DNA of 37,246 nucleotides from Pseudomonadota bacterium. GTDB lineage: Bacteria > UBA10199 > 2-02-FULL-44-16 > JAAZCA01. Shown here piece after piece: positions 7,590 through 28,946 of the stretch. Within the stretch, counting starts at the first letter, position 1, and each line of letters starts with the position of its first letter. The notes beneath the pieces are model-generated. The model ran no database searches. It was not told the origin of the DNA and saw nothing but the letters and a program-made list of their open reading frames with translations. Made by a program: the position numbers and the translations under genes. The stretch spans positions 1 to 37,246 of the forward strand of contig JAZDOG010000078.1 in NCBI GenBank assembly GCA_043798915.1, in the 5' to 3' direction.

Positions 7590-7634
7590 GTTGATGTATC
7601 AGAAAACTCACTATTATTAACACGAGGATATTAT

Positions 7635-8168
7635 ATGAAAAACAAGAACTTAAATAGAAAAGTTGAAGAAACAAGTGAAGGAACTGTCCTCTTTAATGTG
7701 CCATATCCCAAAAACCCAGAGGCTCTCAAGGGTATGTCGCCTATCATTATAAAGCAGCCCTACCAGATAGACTACATCCACAGCTACGGTCAGGATTCCC
7801 CCTGGTTTGCGGCGCTGGCCAACGGCAAGCTCCTCGCCAGCCGATGTTCCGCCTGCGGCAAGGCGTGGCCCACGCCGCGCGGGGCCTGCACGGAGTGCGG
7901 CGGCGAGACCGACTGGCTGGAACTCCCGCTTGAGGGAAAGGTGCACACCTTCACCGTCTGTCACTTCGGTGCCGAGGCGTTTCTGGATCAGACGCCGTTT
8001 GTCCTCGCGATGATCGAATTTCCGCAGACGCAGACGCTTCTGCTCACACGGCTCATGGGCGTGGATCCGCATGAGGCCACCCTCAACTGGGTGGGGATGA
8101 AGGTGCATGCGAAATTTCGCCGCAATTCGCAGTTCAATCCAACTGATGTGTATTTTGTTCCAGCATAG
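7635..8168 (+). CDS. DUF35 Zn-ribbon/OB-fold protein (thiolase partner)
   Basis: RCSACGK...PRGACTECG zinc ribbon, GKVHTFTV, GMKVHAKF OB-fold strands. Confidence 0.88.
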   Translation: MKNKNLNRKVEETSEGTVLFNVPYPKNPEALKGMSPIIIKQPYQIDYIHSYGQDSPWFAALANGKLLASRCSACGKAWPTPRGACTECGGETDWLELPLEGKVHTFTVCHFGAEAFLDQTPFVLAMIEFPQTQTLLLTRLMGVDPHEATLNWVGMKVHAKFRRNSQFNPTDVYFVPA

Positions 8169-8183
8169 GAAGGGTGCAGAAGG

Positions 8184-9185
8184 TTATCTGTGTCTGCTGG
8201 CTGCCTGGGGGTTCTTCTCTATGAACTCGATGAATCTCTTCATGAGTTCCGGGTCCCAGTAGCCGTTCTCGGTCTCTTCCTTCAGCGTGCGGATCGTCTC
8301 GTCGAACGAGAAGGCGTTTTTGTAAGGCCGCTCCGTCGACATCGCATCGAACGCGTCGATGATCTGGAAGACGCGGGCGAGGTAGGGGATCGAATCGCCC
8401 ACGATGCCGTCGGGATAGCCCATGCCGTTCCACCTCTCGTGGTGGTGGCGGATGATGGGGGTGACGTCAGAAAGCGACCGGAGCGGAAAGCATATCTCTT
8501 CGCCGACGACCGGATGCGTGCGCATGATCTCCCACTCATCCTCCGTGAGCTTGCCGGGCTTGAGGAGTATCGAATCCGGTATGCCTATCTTGCCAACGTC
8601 GTGCAGGATGCTCGCGCGCTCGAGCGAGCGTATCGACTTTTCGTCCAGGTCCAGGAATTTGCCGAACTGCTGTGAGAGGCGGATCAGCCTGTCGCAGTGG
8701 TCGCCCGTTGTCGTGTCCTTCGCCTCGACCGCGCGGGCAAGCGAGAGGACCACCGACTCGGCGTGATCGAGGTCGTCGTTGAGGCGCTTCACCTGGCCGA
8801 GGGCATGGACGCGGGCGATGAGTTCCAGCCTGTCGATTGGCTTCGAGATGAAGTCGTCGCAGCCGGCCTGTATCCCCTTGATCCTGTCATCGCGCTCCTG
8901 GAGGGCGGTGACGATGACGATGGGGACGAGCCTCGTCGTCTCGCTGCCCTTCAAGCGCCTGCAGACCTCGAAGCCGTCCATCCCCGGCATCATGACGTCG
9001 AGCAGGATCACATCCGGGAGCTTCTTCCATATCTTGTCGATCGCCTCCTGTCCGGAGATCGCCCGTTCCACGACGCAGCCATGTGGCGTGAGCATCTTCT
9101 CGATGACGAGGAGGTTCGTCGTGTCGTCATCGACCGCCAGGATGGTGAGAGGTTCGGCAAACTTTGGGAGATTTAGATTTTCCAT
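8184..9185 (-). CDS. Response regulator with HD-GYP c-di-GMP phosphodiesterase domain (RpfG-like)
   Basis: REC domain (AVDDD, LLDVMMPGMDG, SKP) plus LHDVGKIG, HHERWNGMGYP, RPYK. Confidence 0.93.
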   Translation of the reverse strand: MENLNLPKFAEPLTILAVDDDTTNLLVIEKMLTPHGCVVERAISGQEAIDKIWKKLPDVILLDVMMPGMDGFEVCRRLKGSETTRLVPIVIVTALQERDDRIKGIQAGCDDFISKPIDRLELIARVHALGQVKRLNDDLDHAESVVLSLARAVEAKDTTTGDHCDRLIRLSQQFGKFLDLDEKSIRSLERASILHDVGKIGIPDSILLKPGKLTEDEWEIMRTHPVVGEEICFPLRSLSDVTPIIRHHHERWNGMGYPDGIVGDSIPYLARVFQIIDAFDAMSTERPYKNAFSFDETIRTLKEETENGYWDPELMKRFIEFIEKNPQAASRHR

Positions 9186-9291
9186 AGGGGGCTATGTAAA
9201 TGATATCAGCGCGGAGGTCAAGAAAGCTGTCGGATTGGCGGGCCACTATGGCCTTGAAAACGCCTGATGGCAGGGTATAGGATGCCCGCCT

Positions 9292-10278
9292 ATGGCGGCA
9301 AAAGGCAAAACGCGCGCTTTGTCTCTCCTCTCGGGCGGTCTGGACAGCCTGCTCGCTGTTCGGGCGCTTCAGGAGCAGGGGATCGAGGTCATCGGCATCA
9401 CCTTCACCAGCCCGTTCTTCGGTTCCGCGAACGCGGAGCAGGGGGCGGTGCAGCTTGGGATCGAACTCATTATCCAGGATATCACCGACGATCATCTGCC
9501 GGTCGTGAAGAATCCTCCGCACGGCTATGGCAAGTGCCTGAATCCCTGCATCGATTGCCATGCGCTCATGATCCGCAAGGCGGGCGAGGTCATGAGGCGC
9601 GACGGCTTCGACCTGATCACCACCGGCGAGGTCCTGGGCGAGCGGCCTATGTCGCAGAACATGCAGGCTCTTGGGACGGTGGAGCGCGACTCCGGTTGCA
9701 AGGGGTTTCTTCTGCGCCCGCTCTCGGCGAAGCTGCTGCTGCCCACGTGGCCGGAGATCGAGGGACAAGTCGACAGGGAGCAACTCTTCGCAATCGAGGG
9801 ACGATCTCGCAAACCGCAGATGGTCTTGGCAAAGAGGTTTGGCATCAAGAGCTATGTGCAGCCCGCGGGCGGTTGCCTGCTCACCGACCCGGCGTTCTGC
9901 GCGCGGCTCTCGGAACTCTGGGGCGCGAATCCGGATGCGAGCGTAGAGGACATAAGACTGCTCCGCCTCGGGCGGCATTTCCGCCTTCCTTCGGGTGCAA
10001 AGGCGATCGTCGGGCGCGACATGAACGACAACGAAAGGATCGCTGCAAAAGCGGTCAGCGGAACAGCTCTCCTCTCAGCGGAATCCGTCCCGGGTCCAGT
10101 GGTGCTCCTCGTCGAGGGGAGCGGCCGTGAGGACATCGAAATTGCCGCGAGGCTCTGCGCGAGTTTTTCGGACCACGGCGAGGGCGAGGTGGGCATGGAT
10201 GTTCAATCGGGCTCCGGTACTGAGCGGATTGCGGTTCATCCATCGCCGCGCAGCGAGTTCGACGTCATGAGGATATGA
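9292..10278 (+). CDS. PP-loop ATPase, putative tRNA sulfurtransferase (ThiI/MnmA-related) with C-terminal NFACT-R/DUF814-like region
   Basis: SGGLDS PP-loop, NPCIDC, TGEVLGERPMSQ, PAGGCLLT, GRHFRL. Confidence 0.75.
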   Translation: MAAKGKTRALSLLSGGLDSLLAVRALQEQGIEVIGITFTSPFFGSANAEQGAVQLGIELIIQDITDDHLPVVKNPPHGYGKCLNPCIDCHALMIRKAGEVMRRDGFDLITTGEVLGERPMSQNMQALGTVERDSGCKGFLLRPLSAKLLLPTWPEIEGQVDREQLFAIEGRSRKPQMVLAKRFGIKSYVQPAGGCLLTDPAFCARLSELWGANPDASVEDIRLLRLGRHFRLPSGAKAIVGRDMNDNERIAAKAVSGTALLSAESVPGPVVLLVEGSGREDIEIAARLCASFSDHGEGEVGMDVQSGSGTERIAVHPSPRSEFDVMRI

Positions 10279-10288
10279 GAGGTCTTAA

Positions 10289-10810
10289 ATGCGCACTAAC
10301 TACGATATCCTGGGTATAACACCGCAGGCGCCGGCCGAGATAGTGAGCGCCGTCTATCGGGCGTGGATGAAGGCGCTGAAGGTGCATCCGGACCTCGGTG
10401 GCGACGAGGAGCTGGCCAAGGAGATCAACGCCGCATATGATATCCTCCGTGATCCGGGGCGCCGGGCGGTTTACGATGCTGAATTGAAGCGCAGCGCCAG
10501 TTCGCCCCTAAACCACGGGGCACGGCGGGCTCCTCGCTCCGAGGTGGATTCGCCGATCGCCTATTGTCAGGCCGCTACGCAGGAATGGCATTCGGCGCGC
10601 GCAGTCGACGCGAGCGTCCTGGGACTCAAATTCGTAACTGACGAAGAACTCCTTGTCGGGATGCATCTTGCCGTTGCATTTCCGGGCAGCACGTCGCCGG
10701 CGGTCGAGGCGGACGTCCGATGGGCGAGGGCAGCTAGCAACGGCTTTGAGGTCGGCGTTGAATTCTTCGAACCGGTGCCAAACATTCTGAATCGTTTGAG
10801 GGCAACCTGA
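10289..10810 (+). CDS. J-domain + PilZ domain fusion protein
   Basis: NYDILG...VHPD...INAAYDILRDP J-domain; RRAPR (RxxxR) and DASVLG (DxSxxG) PilZ motifs, ending in VRW...VGVEF. Confidence 0.82.
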   Translation: MRTNYDILGITPQAPAEIVSAVYRAWMKALKVHPDLGGDEELAKEINAAYDILRDPGRRAVYDAELKRSASSPLNHGARRAPRSEVDSPIAYCQAATQEWHSARAVDASVLGLKFVTDEELLVGMHLAVAFPGSTSPAVEADVRWARAASNGFEVGVEFFEPVPNILNRLRAT

Positions 10811-10834
10811 TAGGGGGTGCTCAAGGCTTTATTG

Positions 10835-10863
10835 TTGACAGACATTCACCCATCGGGTACGTG
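10835..10863 (+). promoter_or_regulatory. Putative sigma70 promoter for tRNA-fMet
   Basis: TTGACA-17 nt-TACGTG upstream of the tRNA. Confidence 0.5.
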
Positions 10864-10894
10864 CAGCCGCAGTTTCCATGAAAACTCAATATAT

Positions 10895-10971
<77 letters not shown>

Positions 10972-11011
10972 AAAACAAAAGGTCCGCGTCGTTTGCGGGC
11001 CTTTTGTTTTT
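10972..11011 (+). terminator. Intrinsic terminator after tRNA-fMet
   Basis: AAAACAAAAGGTCCGC / GCGGGCCTTTTGTTTTT hairpin with T tail. Confidence 0.75.
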
Positions 11012-24714: not shown

Positions 24715-26454
24715 TCAAAACGTCCGGTAGACGATGATCCTCTTATTCTCAAGCGAAAGAAGCGTCTTTCCTATTTCTTCTTCCTTCTTGCCCAGGATAA
24801 CCGCGATCTCTGAGCTGCTCAACTTGCCGCTGCAGTAGTGGAAGAGGTCGCTCTCATCCTCGGAGAGGAAAATCTCCAGTGCGGGGATGCAGTATCGTCC
24901 GCCCTCATCAACATTGAACATGCCCACCCTGGCAGGGATCAAATCCCTGAAATTCTTCCCCGCTCTGGGGGTGAACTGGGAAAAGCGCTCTGCCTTGAGG
25001 TGTATCGCTTCCAACCAGTTCTTGAAATACGACTTCCAGTCCTTCACGTCGAGAAAGAGGAGGGAGGGATGGATGTTTCCCAGCGTGTCATGGAGGTGCC
25101 TGAGCCGCTTCATCGATTGTCCGTCGGTTGAGAGCACCCGTTTGCTGGTGGCGGCCAGCGCTTCATTCGTCATCTCTGACTTGCGGCGGATGATATCGTT
25201 GCGGGAGAGAGACTCCGTCTCCGTGACGCAGTTGTCGAAGCCCACCGACGTGTAAAGACGCGGATCGAGGAGGGTGAGGCCGTAGCGCTCCGGGCGCATG
25301 AATATGTCAGTGGCCGGCATCGGATTCAGATATTCGAACCTTGTGCTCAGAAAGCCCCTGCTCACCTCGAGGAGTTTTGCGGCTAGCTTGTGCGTGTTGG
25401 AGAGCGTTTGGTCCGATTCGAACGGCCCGCCGACGATGAAGCCTGCGTGCGTGAGGATTCCCTCGCCCGCGCATGCCGCGACGAGCCCGACCGAATCTTC
25501 AGTGACGATGTTTTTCCTGTAGGCCTTGATGACCTTCTGGTCGCCCGATTCGACGCCGAACTGCAGGAAGGCGCAGCCGGCCTCCCTCATCGTCTTGAGT
25601 ATCGATGGCCTCCGGGCGAGCCGGTCGACGCGCCCTTCGGCGTACCAAAAGAGATCGCTGCCGCCGCCGATCTTCTTTATCTCCCGGCAGAACGCCTCGG
25701 TCCGCCGGATATTCGCTGTGAAGGTGTCGTCCACGATGACGAAATAATTGCCTCCGTGCTGCTTTCTTATGGCTCTGATGTCCTCGATCACGCGCGCCAC
25801 GCTTCGCGATCGCACGGAAAAACCCAGCGTGCCGGCTGCGCAGAAGGCGCACCGGTATGGGCATCCTCGGCCGGTGCTGACGGCAAAACCGTAGGGGATC
25901 TCTTTGTGTCCCTCCACCACGCTGTAGTCCGGCGATGGGAGCGAATCCAGGTCGAGTAGCGGAGGGGGCGGGGTGCGGACGATCTTCTTGCGGCGAAGAA
26001 ATGAAATCCCCTTCACGCCGGAGAGTTTCGATTTATGCAGAAGCTCCGCGCAAGGGGTCTCCCCCTCTCCCCTGACGACCACATCGGGGGCAGTCTCCTT
26101 TAGGGATTCTTCGTCGCACACTGTCGCGTGGGCTCCCCCGATGGCGATCCTCGACGATGGCGAAACCGTGCGCACGACCTCGATCAGATGGCCGACTGCA
26201 AAGATCGTGTCGGTGTATGCGCTGAAACCGATCCAGGCCGGGCGCGCCTCGCTCAAATAGTCTGCGAACCAGCCGAGCGAAAACTTCACATCTCTGGTGT
26301 CCACGACGCGCGAGCGAAAACCCTGCGCGTTCAGATACGTCGCAATCTGGATGAGCCCCAATGGAGGGAGGAACACTTCGAAAGGGAGGGGAGAGGTGCC
26401 CGCATCGGTATGCACAAACAGAAAATCCAGCCCTTTGCGGCTAGATTCTATCAT
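24715..26454 (-). CDS. B12-binding radical SAM protein with C-terminal winged-helix (PqqD/RRE-like) extension
   Basis: PPLGL, GGAHAT, GEGE cobalamin-binding region; RGCPYRCAFC CxxxCxxC; DDTF, GVESG; C-terminal CSGKLSSSEIA...LLSLENKRII. Confidence 0.88.
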   Translation of the reverse strand: MIESSRKGLDFLFVHTDAGTSPLPFEVFLPPLGLIQIATYLNAQGFRSRVVDTRDVKFSLGWFADYLSEARPAWIGFSAYTDTIFAVGHLIEVVRTVSPSSRIAIGGAHATVCDEESLKETAPDVVVRGEGETPCAELLHKSKLSGVKGISFLRRKKIVRTPPPPLLDLDSLPSPDYSVVEGHKEIPYGFAVSTGRGCPYRCAFCAAGTLGFSVRSRSVARVIEDIRAIRKQHGGNYFVIVDDTFTANIRRTEAFCREIKKIGGGSDLFWYAEGRVDRLARRPSILKTMREAGCAFLQFGVESGDQKVIKAYRKNIVTEDSVGLVAACAGEGILTHAGFIVGGPFESDQTLSNTHKLAAKLLEVSRGFLSTRFEYLNPMPATDIFMRPERYGLTLLDPRLYTSVGFDNCVTETESLSRNDIIRRKSEMTNEALAATSKRVLSTDGQSMKRLRHLHDTLGNIHPSLLFLDVKDWKSYFKNWLEAIHLKAERFSQFTPRAGKNFRDLIPARVGMFNVDEGGRYCIPALEIFLSEDESDLFHYCSGKLSSSEIAVILGKKEEEIGKTLLSLENKRIIVYRTF

Positions 26455-27215
26455 CCTCGCATGCCCTTGCGCGATCTCCGGATATTCTTGAGTTCCACCT
26501 TGGCGACGCCCTTCAGCTCGGCCGGAGCCGTCGATCCGCCGCGCGCCTTTTCGATCTGCTTCAAACCCCTGGCCTTCGCTTCCACGCGGCTGGTTGGCTC
26601 CGACGAGAAATGTGAGGCTTGGAGCGCCGCCTTGGCTGTGGCGGCGTCAACCTGCGCCTCGCTGATCCCCTTCTCCATATCGGCGCCTTTTTCGCGGAGC
26701 ATGTGATCGAGCATGATCTCGAGGTTGCGCAGGGGGGAGGGATTTTTTTCGAGGAGCGTCTTGATGCGCTCTTTCGCCGGCCTTCTCACCAGGATGAGGC
26801 CGTCATCCTGGCGGAAGTCCTTTTTGAGCGTGTCGAAGAATTCCTTGAGCTTGTCGGGGGCAATCGAGCATGACGGGGCGATCGAGGCAAAGATCAGATC
26901 GTCCAGCCCCTCGTCGGTGTATCTTCCCTCGTTGATCTCCATAGCTTCGAAGGGGATTCGCACCTCGCCCTTGTAGCGGTATTCGTCCAGTGCAATGAAG
27001 TCGTCGTGACCCAGGAGATAGAATCCGTCTCCCTGCCTGTAGGGCTCGAAGACGGCCACCCAAGCTTCGCGGTTGTAGCGTTCGGTGTCGACGAAGCCCA
27101 ACTCCCAGAGCTGCTCGACGTCGGCCCAATGATAGCGGATCCGGCCGTCGACGGTCTTCTCCAGCGTCTCCCAGAGGTGCTCCATCACGTTGAAATGTGA
27201 AAGCTCAAACGGCAT
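26451..27215 (-). CDS. Hypothetical protein (254 aa), translationally coupled to the radical SAM gene
   Basis: GGAGG SD, ATGA overlap with downstream gene, protein-like composition; no family recognised. Confidence 0.8.
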   Translation of the reverse strand: MPFELSHFNVMEHLWETLEKTVDGRIRYHWADVEQLWELGFVDTERYNREAWVAVFEPYRQGDGFYLLGHDDFIALDEYRYKGEVRIPFEAMEINEGRYTDEGLDDLIFASIAPSCSIAPDKLKEFFDTLKKDFRQDDGLILVRRPAKERIKTLLEKNPSPLRNLEIMLDHMLREKGADMEKGISEAQVDAATAKAALQASHFSSEPTSRVEAKARGLKQIEKARGGSTAPAELKGVAKVELKNIRRSRKGMRG

Positions 27216-27237: not shown

Positions 27238-27266
27238 ATTTTACGGGTGTATCAGGGCCCTGTCAA
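27238..27266 (-). promoter_or_regulatory. sigma70 promoter for the hypothetical/radical SAM pair
   Basis: Minus strand TTGACA-17 nt-TAAAAT. Confidence 0.75.
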
Positions 27267-27280
27267 AAGAAAATCAGCGA

Positions 27281-27403
27281 CTCTTTTCCCTCTCCCCTAG
27301 TGGGTCGGCTCGCGCACACACTCGCCGACACTTCAATTTTGCGGGGCCCTCCGTTCGGAGGGCCCGAGACCGCCGAAGGTCGAAGAGGGTCAGGGTGAGG
27401 GGG
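27281..27403. repeat. Second copy of the REP-like unit, interrupted by a 79-nt hairpin-rich insert
   Basis: 27281-27304 and 27384-27402 together match the reverse complement of 7547-7589 with one mismatch. Confidence 0.8.
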
Positions 27404-27404
27404 A

Positions 27405-27821
27405 TCAGGATAACTTCGGATTTCCGTAGCTGTAGGATGTGCGGTCGAATGTCTGTTTTAACGCTTTGGTGTCTATCTTTGCGGTCGCCGCGGTCTTCCT
27501 GGATTCCTTTGCCTCCGCCGTTGCGGTTTTCAAATTGTCCTCGGCCTTTTTGTGATCCTCCGCGGCCTTGTTATATTCCGCGGTTCCATTCGCGATGATC
27601 TGCTGTTTCTCTATGTCAGCCGCGGACTTGTCGAGCGAGTCCTGTGTGGACATCTCGGCCAGGTGTTCCTGATGGTCGTACTGCGCGATGGTCATCCTGA
27701 GCTGCGATTCCATCTGGTCCTTGGCGGCTGCGTACTGTATGCCGGAGCCGATGGCGCTGCTGGTCATCTGTCCGGCGCCCATCAGCACGCTGCCCATTCC
27801 TGTCTGTCCTGCCCCTGTCAT
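27405..27821 (-). CDS. Hypothetical Gly-rich N-terminus/coiled-coil protein (138 aa)
   Basis: GGAGG SD; MTGAGQTGMGSVLMGAG... then Q/A/K/E-rich helix; ends RTSYSYGNPKLS. Confidence 0.8.
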   Translation of the reverse strand: MTGAGQTGMGSVLMGAGQMTSSAIGSGIQYAAAKDQMESQLRMTIAQYDHQEHLAEMSTQDSLDKSAADIEKQQIIANGTAEYNKAAEDHKKAEDNLKTATAEAKESRKTAATAKIDTKALKQTFDRTSYSYGNPKLS

Positions 27822-27854
27822 GGCGTCCTCCCTTGCGTTGCCGTGTTCAAACCA

Positions 27855-28469
27855 TCATGCGGCGATCGACGGCATCCCCATGTCCCACCCGCGCCGGGTG
27901 AAGGCATCGGATACGGAGAGTATCTTCGCGCGGTCCGCCTTGCCCTGTACTTCGATCGCCAGCAGCTGCCGCTTCGTCGCCCCCTCGAGGCTCGCCAACT
28001 TCTCCTCGTGCCTCATCTGATCGGTGTGCATCTGCTGCTGGACATAGATGGCATTCTGCTGGACATCGAGTTGCCTCATCGCAACCTTCGTCTGGTAACC
28101 GGCGATCGTGTCCTGTGTGTCGTAGTATTTGAGCGCTACGGTCATCTGGTTGTTCATCGAGGTCTTCGAGAGGTCCCAGTTGAGGAACGAGTTGACCATG
28201 TTCGAGACCATGCCGAAGGCCTGGAGGCCCTGCTGGGCGTATCCGAGGTTGGCGGTCTGCTTATCGTCGAGTTTCGCCCCTTGTATCTGCATATTGATCC
28301 CGCCGCCAACGCTTGGCGCGGAGACCGGGAGCATCTGCGGCTGAGACATGCCGATTCCGCCACCATAGCCGTATCCCGGATAGCCACCGTAGCCTGCGGA
28401 ACCATAGGGACTTTGTCCGTACGGCGATCCTGTCTGCTGATATGGAACCTGCTGGCCTGCGCTTAACAT
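27855..28469 (-). CDS. Hypothetical G/Y/Q/P-rich N-terminus, amphipathic helix and Gln/Met-rich coiled-coil protein (204 aa)
   Basis: AAGGAGG SD; ends RRGWDMGMPSIAA. Confidence 0.82.
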   Translation of the reverse strand: MLSAGQQVPYQQTGSPYGQSPYGSAGYGGYPGYGYGGGIGMSQPQMLPVSAPSVGGGINMQIQGAKLDDKQTANLGYAQQGLQAFGMVSNMVNSFLNWDLSKTSMNNQMTVALKYYDTQDTIAGYQTKVAMRQLDVQQNAIYVQQQMHTDQMRHEEKLASLEGATKRQLLAIEVQGKADRAKILSVSDAFTRRGWDMGMPSIAA

Positions 28470-28497
28470 ATTGGTTCCTCCTTCCTTTAAGGGACGC

Positions 28498-28923
28498 CTA
28501 TGTGGACGATGGCGTACCCTTGTTGTACCCCGTGTTCTGCGACCTCAAACTCGGTTTCGATGTCTGTTCTACGTTGTGGACGGAATTGATGTTCGCCTCC
28601 TGCCTCTTTCTCACTGCATCGCGATTCGTCTTCTCCGTGAGCAGGCGTTCATATGCGGAGGCGGAGGCGAACGCCGAGCGCGTCTGCCTCAAGTTTTTGA
28701 GTGTAATCGCCTTGTTGATTTCCGACAGTCCCTTCGCGCGCGCATCCGACTTGTTGTTCTGTTCCTTCTGCAGATTCTCCATCTTGCGTGCATTATCTTC
28801 CGCCGAGTTCTTCTGATCGACGGAGACGCCGACCGTCACAGCAGTCGTAATGATCGAAGCGATCACGCTGATGACGGTACCAGATACGCAACACATGATG
28901 CCTATGACGCCCAGCGTGAACAT
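28498..28923 (-). CDS. Hypothetical protein with long N-terminal hydrophobic segment and coiled coil (141 aa)
   Basis: AAGGAG SD favours ATG 28923 (MFTLGVIGIMCC...); ends NTGYNKGTPSST. Confidence 0.8.
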   Translation of the reverse strand: MFTLGVIGIMCCVSGTVISVIASIITTAVTVGVSVDQKNSAEDNARKMENLQKEQNNKSDARAKGLSEINKAITLKNLRQTRSAFASASAYERLLTEKTNRDAVRKRQEANINSVHNVEQTSKPSLRSQNTGYNKGTPSST

Positions 28924-28946
28924 TGGAATATCTCCTTCCATCATTA

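Follow-up and report, generated by a model that had tools for sequence, protein, structure and literature searches.

This report concerns a short peptide motif at the C-terminal ends of three neighbouring genes from a Pseudomonadota bacterium (GTDB lineage UBA10199; 2-02-FULL-44-16; JAAZCA01). The window analysed is a stretch of 37,246 nucleotides (assembly GCA_043798915.1, contig JAZDOG010000078.1, positions 1 to 37,246 of the forward strand). On its minus strand, the lepB–mutS interval carries five closely spaced genes, namely C, B, and A, which bear the motif, a gene for a protein that we call p254, and a gene for a B12-binding radical S-adenosylmethionine (SAM) enzyme. The triad C-B-A and p254 are a real, uncharacterised, lineage-specific module. 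The gene order mutS, C-B-A-p254 recurs across 15 related loci; the genes are chromosomal, and their synteny with mutS holds across an order. Of 41 related genomes, 18 had a B homologue; within the family, the figure was 11 of 12 genomes.

Gene C (28498-28944, minus strand, 148 amino acids, ending RSQNTGYNKGTPSST) is the membrane-anchored member of the family. Its product has a transmembrane helix at the N-terminus, the tail Y-N-K-G-T-P-S-S-T at the other end, and a charged helical region in between. Position 28923, the end given in the initial annotation, corresponds to its second ATG, which is preceded by a ribosome-binding site (GAAGGAGA); given this site, the true start of C is likely 28923. 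Gene B (27855-28469, minus strand, 204 amino acids, ending FTRRGWDMGMPSIAA) starts with M-L-S-A-G-Q, followed by a disordered Q/P/G/Y-rich region, a long helix (residues 69-186), and the tail W-D-M-G-M-P-S-I-A-A. Gene A (27405-27821, minus strand, 138 amino acids, ending FDRTSYSYGNPKLS), a paralogue of B, has a segment that is rich in glycine and moderately hydrophobic, then a helical region, and lastly the tail Y-S-Y-G-N-P-K-L-S. The gaps within C-B-A are 28 and 33 bases. Downstream, p254 (26451..27215, minus strand, 254 amino acids) belongs to no database family and is proposed here as the receptor of the tails. The stop codon of p254 overlaps by 4 bases the start of the radical SAM gene (24715..26454, minus strand, 579 amino acids; Pfam B12-binding and Radical_SAM).

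The list of open reading frames (ORFs) confirmed the three endings on which the initial annotation was based, Y-S-Y-G-N-P, W-D-M-G-M-P, and Y-N-K-G-T-P, each placed 3-4 residues before the stop. Computed from the ORFs, the motif codons lie on the minus strand at 28510..28527 in C (Y140-P145), 27870..27887 in B (W195-P200, including the invariant G198), and 27417..27434 in A (Y130-P135). No Pfam, NCBIfam, or PHROG match was obtained for A, B, C, or p254 (Pfam threshold E up to 1 for A, B, and C).

Paralogy and architecture of A, B and C

Profile comparison with hhalign aligned A with B (probability 98.6%, E 6e-16, 155 columns) and A with C (probability 95.9%, E 6e-9). The direct comparison of B with C was weak (probability 55.6%, E 1e-4), and these two are joined via A and via an iterated profile. 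Reversed-sequence controls gave E values of 0.004-0.08. After removal of the motif columns, A-B still reached 97.7% and A-C 75.6%, and B-C was lost. A four-times iterated profile from C collected A, B, and C. Against 24,035 ORFs of the genome, the iterated profile matched only these three (E 1e-24 to 1e-27; next 0.049), and the family profile search found no further paralogue of the triad in the genome. This profile evidence places A, B, and C in a single lineage-specific family as diverged paralogues. The shared motif is thus inherited and kept by selection, rather than acquired by convergence. The initial annotation had described the proteins as dissimilar and not alignable. The latter is true by eye, but not as profiles, and the proteins turn out to be diverged paralogues alignable along their length, an outcome that the annotation had itself named as speaking against its proposal. 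Dissimilar proteins sharing a motif, the case cautions, can be old paralogues.

The AlphaFold2 model of B, based on 79 sequences, shows a single 118-residue helix (residues 69-186) with a predicted local distance difference test (pLDDT) score of 86-98, followed by a flexible tail of the C-terminal 18 residues (pLDDT ~62). As modelled, the helix could hardly stand alone. In C, the Kyte-Doolittle 19-residue maximum at the N-terminus was 2.0-2.8 in 17/17 homologues, which marks a clear membrane helix; the corresponding segment is weaker in A and B. The family thus shows a common build, in which a hydrophobic segment, glycine-rich in places, is followed by one long helix and a flexible tail. For A and C, we infer the long helix from the profile alignment to B. 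B homologues and many A homologues also share a second terminal motif at their beginning, M-[ILMF]-S/A-A-G-Q (B 28452-28469, A 27804-27821), and in B the disordered Q/P/G/Y-rich stretch comes next.

A very long helix after a glycine-rich hydrophobic segment is also present in the phiX174 H pilot protein (4jpn), the only hint returned by the B profile against the structural database (E 2.4, not significant). The neighbours of B in the ESM Atlas were viral minor proteins with scores of 0.75-0.82, below the lead bar of 0.9. Unlike phiX174 H, the genes described here are chromosomal and syntenic with mutS.

The shared architecture raises the alternative that the motif caps a hetero-oligomeric coiled coil of the paralogues, or sets its register, without an outside receptor. 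Every paralogue bears the motif at the same end of its long helix, and tandem multi-copy sets arose repeatedly: members of the distant families are single or independently duplicated (three copies at locus L042, two each at L076 and L079), and locus L012 holds two triads. The tail is nevertheless predicted to be flexible and to lie outside the helix, the distance from the helix end to the motif varies in the B alignment, where insertions ahead of the motif reach ~8 residues, and single-copy lineages retain the tail. Weighing these points, we consider self-assembly through the motif unlikely. The L012 arrangement (7608-11006), found in a complete genome (G003), has a second complete C-B-A triad in tandem with the first, followed by one p254.

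Conservation and distribution of the C-terminal tail

The motif Gly was kept in 17/17 sequences in each of the 17-sequence alignments of A, B, and C, and the motif Pro was the majority residue in 0.88 (A), 0.76 (B), and 0.88 (C) of the rows. In a 20-sequence alignment of B, the sole invariant residues were R180, R192, and G198, R192 being the upstream Arg noted in the initial annotation; among 79 diverse relatives, only M1 and G198 remained invariant. Almost all A, B, and C homologues of the 15 related loci finish with Ar-x-x-G-x-P (Ar, aromatic residue) and a few residues more, 0 to ~10 after the motif in most homologues and longer in a few C-type tails. The consensus tail is R-x(1-3)-Ar-x-x-G-x-P. 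The motif is therefore kept across genera while the upstream sequence drifts, as the initial annotation had expected of a genuine signal.

A word-indexed search with B found 3 relatives only, and an exhaustive profile search was required, which found 119 cluster representatives among 1.84 billion. The full motif was present within the last 16 residues of 69 of these, a further 18 carried G-x-P with a different aromatic spacing, and 4 had an exact Ar-x-Ar-G terminus; the remaining representatives mostly showed Ar-x-Ar-G without the Pro. Tails of the distant families are acidic, for example Y-D-Y-G and Y-E-Y-P-E-P. Across 88 family hits, Ar-x-[Ar/L/M]-[G/P] occurred in the last 30 residues of 47, compared with 1 in the preceding 30 residues. 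Four homologue ORFs (B homologues at L015, L017, and L019, and an A homologue at L022) stop right after the Gly in Ar-x-Ar-G, which indicates that Ar-x-x-G is the core, with a frequent but dispensable Pro. Stop-codon read-through was considered for these four and rejected, as the stops are genuine and the next gene follows. Such endings could hint that a C-terminal Gly is what matters, or that the longer forms are processed after the Gly.

As a chance base rate, [YWF]xxGxP occurred in 139 of 49,001 internal 14-residue windows of the genome's ORFs, from which we calculated a chance of ~2e-8 for the motif at the C-terminus of three given adjacent genes. Judged from the alignments, the motif is a conserved functional C-terminal element and the most strongly selected part of the family. 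A literature search did not find YxxGxP, YxYGxP, or WxxGxP, and the occurrences of 'YxYG' were unrelated.

In its layout, the tail is reminiscent of the hub-binding tails of SSB and the C-terminal peptide of FtsZ, which recruit partners. These likewise combine a flexible linker with a short invariant tail in which few residues are selected. The sequences are not alike, and the present tail is carried by membrane-attached, long-helix proteins from a single uncultured phylum, with p254 as a candidate partner.

The pattern of invariance also bears on whether the tail is a degron, a turnover tag recognised by a cytoplasmic protease. In many close homologues of B, the last residues are P-x-I/L-A-A (27855-27869 in the window's B), which we take to resemble the end of the ssrA degradation tag. 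This A-A ending is, however, confined to near relatives of B and absent from A, C, and distant B relatives, and the invariant residues are the Gly and the Arg, not the last residues. A degron therefore appears extremely unlikely.

The initial annotation had proposed a genome-wide scan of C-termini for the motif, and the window's genome showed no enrichment. Outside the triad, the motif was found in the last 14 residues of 5 of 2,123 non-overlapping ORFs, against a prediction of 6.0 from internal windows and 5.5 +/- 2.4 carriers among shuffled termini. The 2,123-ORF set lacks the triad itself, which had been displaced by a spurious overlapping plus-strand ORF of 304 amino acids. In the unfiltered list, 33 of 9,989 ORFs carried the motif; the triad ranked 1st, 2nd, and 5th by coding score, and the other carriers look like chance. 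Two further motif-bearing ORFs, on contigs C16 and C99, were rejected, since they look like antisense artefacts and match no family profile. The lack of enrichment outside the triad argues against the motif as a label for a substrate class. Within the window's genome, it is local to one module and is not a general signal.

The 304-amino-acid plus-strand open frame (27552-28466) spans B and part of A and is longer than the real genes; it displaced the triad genes in the longest-ORF gene call. Automatic annotation could make the same error at this frame.

A further alternative is a C-terminal export or sorting signal read by a machine encoded elsewhere, such as the flagellar type III gate. In its favour, A and B lack a signal peptide and have a conserved M-I-S-A-G-Q N-terminus followed by a disordered region, and the genome has one FlhA and five ATPases of the type II secretion system (T2SS) type. 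Against it, no other credible protein in the genome carries the motif, C is membrane-anchored, and a type VI secretion system (T6SS) sheath was not found in the genome. Co-distribution with flagellar export genes, suggested in the initial annotation, was examined as well: FlhA was present in 91/93 phylum genomes and the B profile in 31/93, which amounts to no co-distribution, and a gene present in 91/93 genomes cannot discriminate between explanations by its distribution. Several phylum genomes carry two or three copies of the FlhA-type export gate.

The pattern is also unlike the signals of type VII, type IX, sortase, and exosortase systems by inspection against their usual definitions, in keeping with the initial annotation, which knew of no matching C-terminal signal. 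The likeness to these systems extends only to a signal at or near the C-terminus. Type VII substrates are helical hairpins of ~100 amino acids with a central W-x-G and a C-terminal Y-x-x-x-D/E; here, no D/E is found at +4, there is no central WxG hairpin, and B forms one 118-residue helix. In sortase and exosortase tags, such as LPXTG and PEP-CTERM, the motif precedes a hydrophobic helix and then a basic tail, whereas only 3-4 residues follow the motif in the window. The type IX C-terminal domain (CTD) is a folded beta-sandwich of ~80-100 amino acids, whereas B ends in a flexible tail, with no beta domain of 80-100 amino acids and no Pfam or NCBIfam match. Taken together, an export signal is very unlikely.

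p254 and its proposed association with the tail family

The 117 homologues of p254 share 40-67% identity and none is functionally named; the few with a named source come from metagenome bins labelled only 'bacterium', 'Deltaproteobacteria bacterium', 'Proteobacteria bacterium', or 'Pseudomonadota bacterium'. The p254 profile matched 79/93 phylum genomes and 59/63 good-quality ones, often in several copies. In the p254 model (pLDDT 80.9), residues 1-190 form a globular part; a long helix comes next, and the protein closes with a basic, disordered stretch whose last residues are K-G-M-R-G. The globular part is modelled as four helix-short strand-helix units. Fold searches gave no clear match (Foldseek best E 0.72, best VIA Z 5.0). 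EF-hand proteins filled 8 of the top 10 Foldseek rows (12 of 15), all at E 0.7 or worse, and an EF-hand Pfam match was absent in the window p254 and 46 members (E up to 10); the EF-hand likeness is thus no more than a lead. The Pfam scan of the 46 members singly gave nothing consistent, a sequence search of the PDB with the p254 and B profiles returned nothing significant, and the ESM Atlas held no usable match to p254.

Two short conserved motifs stand out in the disordered tail of p254 (C-terminal third, 26451-26660). The first is S-x-F-S-x-x-P-T, in which S201, F203, and P207 are invariant or nearly so; the second is the terminal K-I-R-R-S-R-K-G-M-R-G, with R247, R253, and G254 invariant. 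Distant p254 paralogues carry S-x-[FY]-[STV]-x-G(-P), which bears a likeness to the core Ar-x-x-G seen in the triad's tails. Across the phylum, the 3-4 kb around p254 hold a MeaB-like GTPase at 27/73 loci and an HMGL-like enzyme at 18/73, 12 of these 18 HMGL-like genes lying less than 50 bases from p254. In the window's genome, the MeaB-like and HMGL-like genes sit on other contigs.

p254 adjoins the triad, or lies within 3.3 kb downstream of it, at 13 of the 15 related loci. One of the other two loci ends at the contig end, and the other belongs to a genome (G002) in which p254 is on another contig. p254 is also present in 28 of the 31 genomes with a B-profile match. Of 73 loci from across the phylum, 36 have a family member within 4 kb of p254.

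When residues 1-200 of p254 were co-folded with residues 140-204 of B, the score was 0.48 (runs 0.65, 0.00, and 0.48), with an agreement between runs of at least 0% of contacts and a partner pLDDT of at least 35; the best of three controls scored 0.01. This result was graded as weak support. The mark applied is reached by 116/157 solved complexes and 2/215 mismatched pairs, and at scores of 0.60 or under, it was reached by 18/157 solved complexes and by both passing mismatches. The net charge of the family tails covaried inversely with that of the p254 globular domain (Spearman -0.72 over 37 loci; -0.45 for the 16 loci of the window's order and -0.52 for the 21 others).

Several observations weigh against docking of the tail motif on p254. 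One of the three co-folding runs gave 0.00 and no interface was returned, so that nothing shows the motif itself as the contact. The 60 residues before the tail covary as strongly (-0.79); the covariation is thus not tail-specific and supports association between the two proteins rather than contact through the motif. As the loci are themselves related, the p-values of the charge covariation also overstate the case. The p254 fold offers no hint of a peptide-binding groove. p254 was found in 51 genomes without a B-profile match and, in G002, on another contig than the triad, and the four homologues without the x-P part show that the Pro is dispensable. Lastly, two features separate p254 from A. 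A sigma-70-like promoter match lies directly upstream of p254 (27238..27266, minus strand; TTGACA, 17 bases, TAAAAT; 11/12, a consensus match only), and a GC-rich hairpin with a 9-bp stem and a GAAC loop, without a U tract, lies 40 bases 3' of the gene A stop (27344..27365, minus strand). p254 may consequently be transcribed partly on its own.

With these points taken into account, the tail is most likely a docking tag for the adjoining p254, rather than a general export signal. Of the sorting or assembly signal suggested in the initial annotation, a docking or assembly role remains the best reading, while a general signal for export does not. Nor did we find grounds for its machine encoded elsewhere, as the adjacency, the weak co-folding result, and the charge covariation point to p254 next door as the likely partner. 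Encapsulin cargo-loading and similar C-terminal targeting peptides, which are read by a co-encoded protein, offer a close parallel in arrangement: a short C-terminal peptide on several proteins of a locus docks on a neighbour, as proposed here. The differences are that the present carriers are paralogues instead of unrelated enzymes, that the motif sequence is another, and that p254 has no capsid-like or other known fold.

The radical SAM neighbour and a possible role of the module

The radical SAM protein of the window carries the Pfam domains B12-binding and Radical_SAM and scores far below every NCBIfam cut-off. A B12-radical SAM homologue was found within 3.2 kb of p254 at 19/73 loci; with 10 B12-radical SAM ORFs in the 2.34-Mb genome, the calculated chance of such proximity is ~3%. 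Of the 8 copies of a second type, 460 amino acids long, 7 lie within ~5 kb of p254; this type was found in 0/22 genomes of the window's order. An orthologue of the 579-amino-acid window type is present in 6/41 relatives, and the two types are 22% identical. In distant loci, a family member comes first, followed by the radical SAM gene and then p254, with very small gaps between them. The enzyme is an accessory member of the module and not a constant one. Its presence in few motif-bearing genomes, yet near p254, indicates that it is tied to p254 rather than to the motif.

These neighbourhoods suggest that the tail could be a recognition or modification site of the B12-radical SAM enzyme, which would methylate or cross-link the tail at its aromatic residue or Gly, with p254 as a substrate-presenting adaptor. 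p254 would then work like the recognition protein of a peptide synthesised by ribosomes and modified after translation (RiPP), but on whole proteins. The overlap of the radical SAM start with the p254 stop in the window, the proximity at 19/73 loci against ~3% by chance, the position of the 460-amino-acid type, and the gene order in distant loci are all consistent with this, and two reports (PMC11499958, PMC11851443) describe radical SAM enzymes that act on aromatic three-residue motifs.

The distribution of the enzyme fits less well. Its orthologue is found in 6/41 relatives, compared with 18/41 for the triad; the 460-amino-acid type is missing from all 22 genomes of the window's order, where the motif is nonetheless strictly kept; and identity between the two enzyme types is as low as 22%. 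The only domains that Pfam detects here are Radical_SAM and B12-binding, and cyclophane synthases are known as SPASM-type enzymes and are not known to be of the B12 type. The MeaB-like (27/73) and HMGL-like (18/73) genes occupy the same neighbourhoods, and the radical SAM linkage may accordingly stem from an old cluster of genes around p254 rather than from the motif. Modification of the tail is thus a possible role and not the leading reading, and with p254 as the adaptor we consider it improbable. We are similarly doubtful of a phylum-wide, protein-scale, RiPP-like maturation, in which p254 would capture the Ar-x-Ar-G/P tail of a membrane-anchored coiled-coil protein, triplicated here, and the B12-radical SAM enzyme would modify it, with the MeaB-like GTPase as a B12 chaperone in the old cluster. 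On this view, the tail would be where a structural membrane complex receives a new post-translational modification.

The precursors of radical SAM cyclophanes (triceptides), as described in the same two reports (PMC11499958, PMC11851443), are alike in combining a three-residue aromatic-x-x core near the C-terminus with a radical SAM gene. They are short peptides, unlike the structural-looking carriers here, which measure 120-200 amino acids (138-204 in the window). The present enzyme differs from the cyclophane synthases in being B12-binding, in having no SPASM domain by Pfam, and in being missing from most motif-bearing genomes. A RiPP precursor of a radical SAM cyclophane synthase was therefore rejected, as the carrier size, the domains, and the 6/41 distribution do not fit.

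For docking of the tails on p254, we tentatively propose the following arrangement. The paralogues A, B, and C would form a membrane-attached helical bundle, and their tails, at the membrane-distal end, would serve as short linear docking motifs for the globular domain of p254. The three genes might thereby bring one to three p254 molecules to the membrane, and in loci that carry one, the B12-radical SAM enzyme may act on the complex. We regard a helical bundle whose tails dock p254 at the membrane as a quite plausible arrangement, if still short of a probable one.

Action of the B12-radical SAM neighbour on the tail, if it occurs, would represent a novel type of protein modification; otherwise, the triad would be a tidy case of a short linear motif preserved through gene triplication. 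In either event, the motif provides a precise handle, in the form of a peptide of six residues and, in the adjoining gene, its candidate receptor. The triad and p254 have no Pfam, NCBIfam, PHROG, or solved-structure family, yet p254 is near-universal in the phylum (79/93). The invariant Gly of the tails and the near-universal p254 suggest that this module is a core piece of the cell biology of an uncultured lineage.

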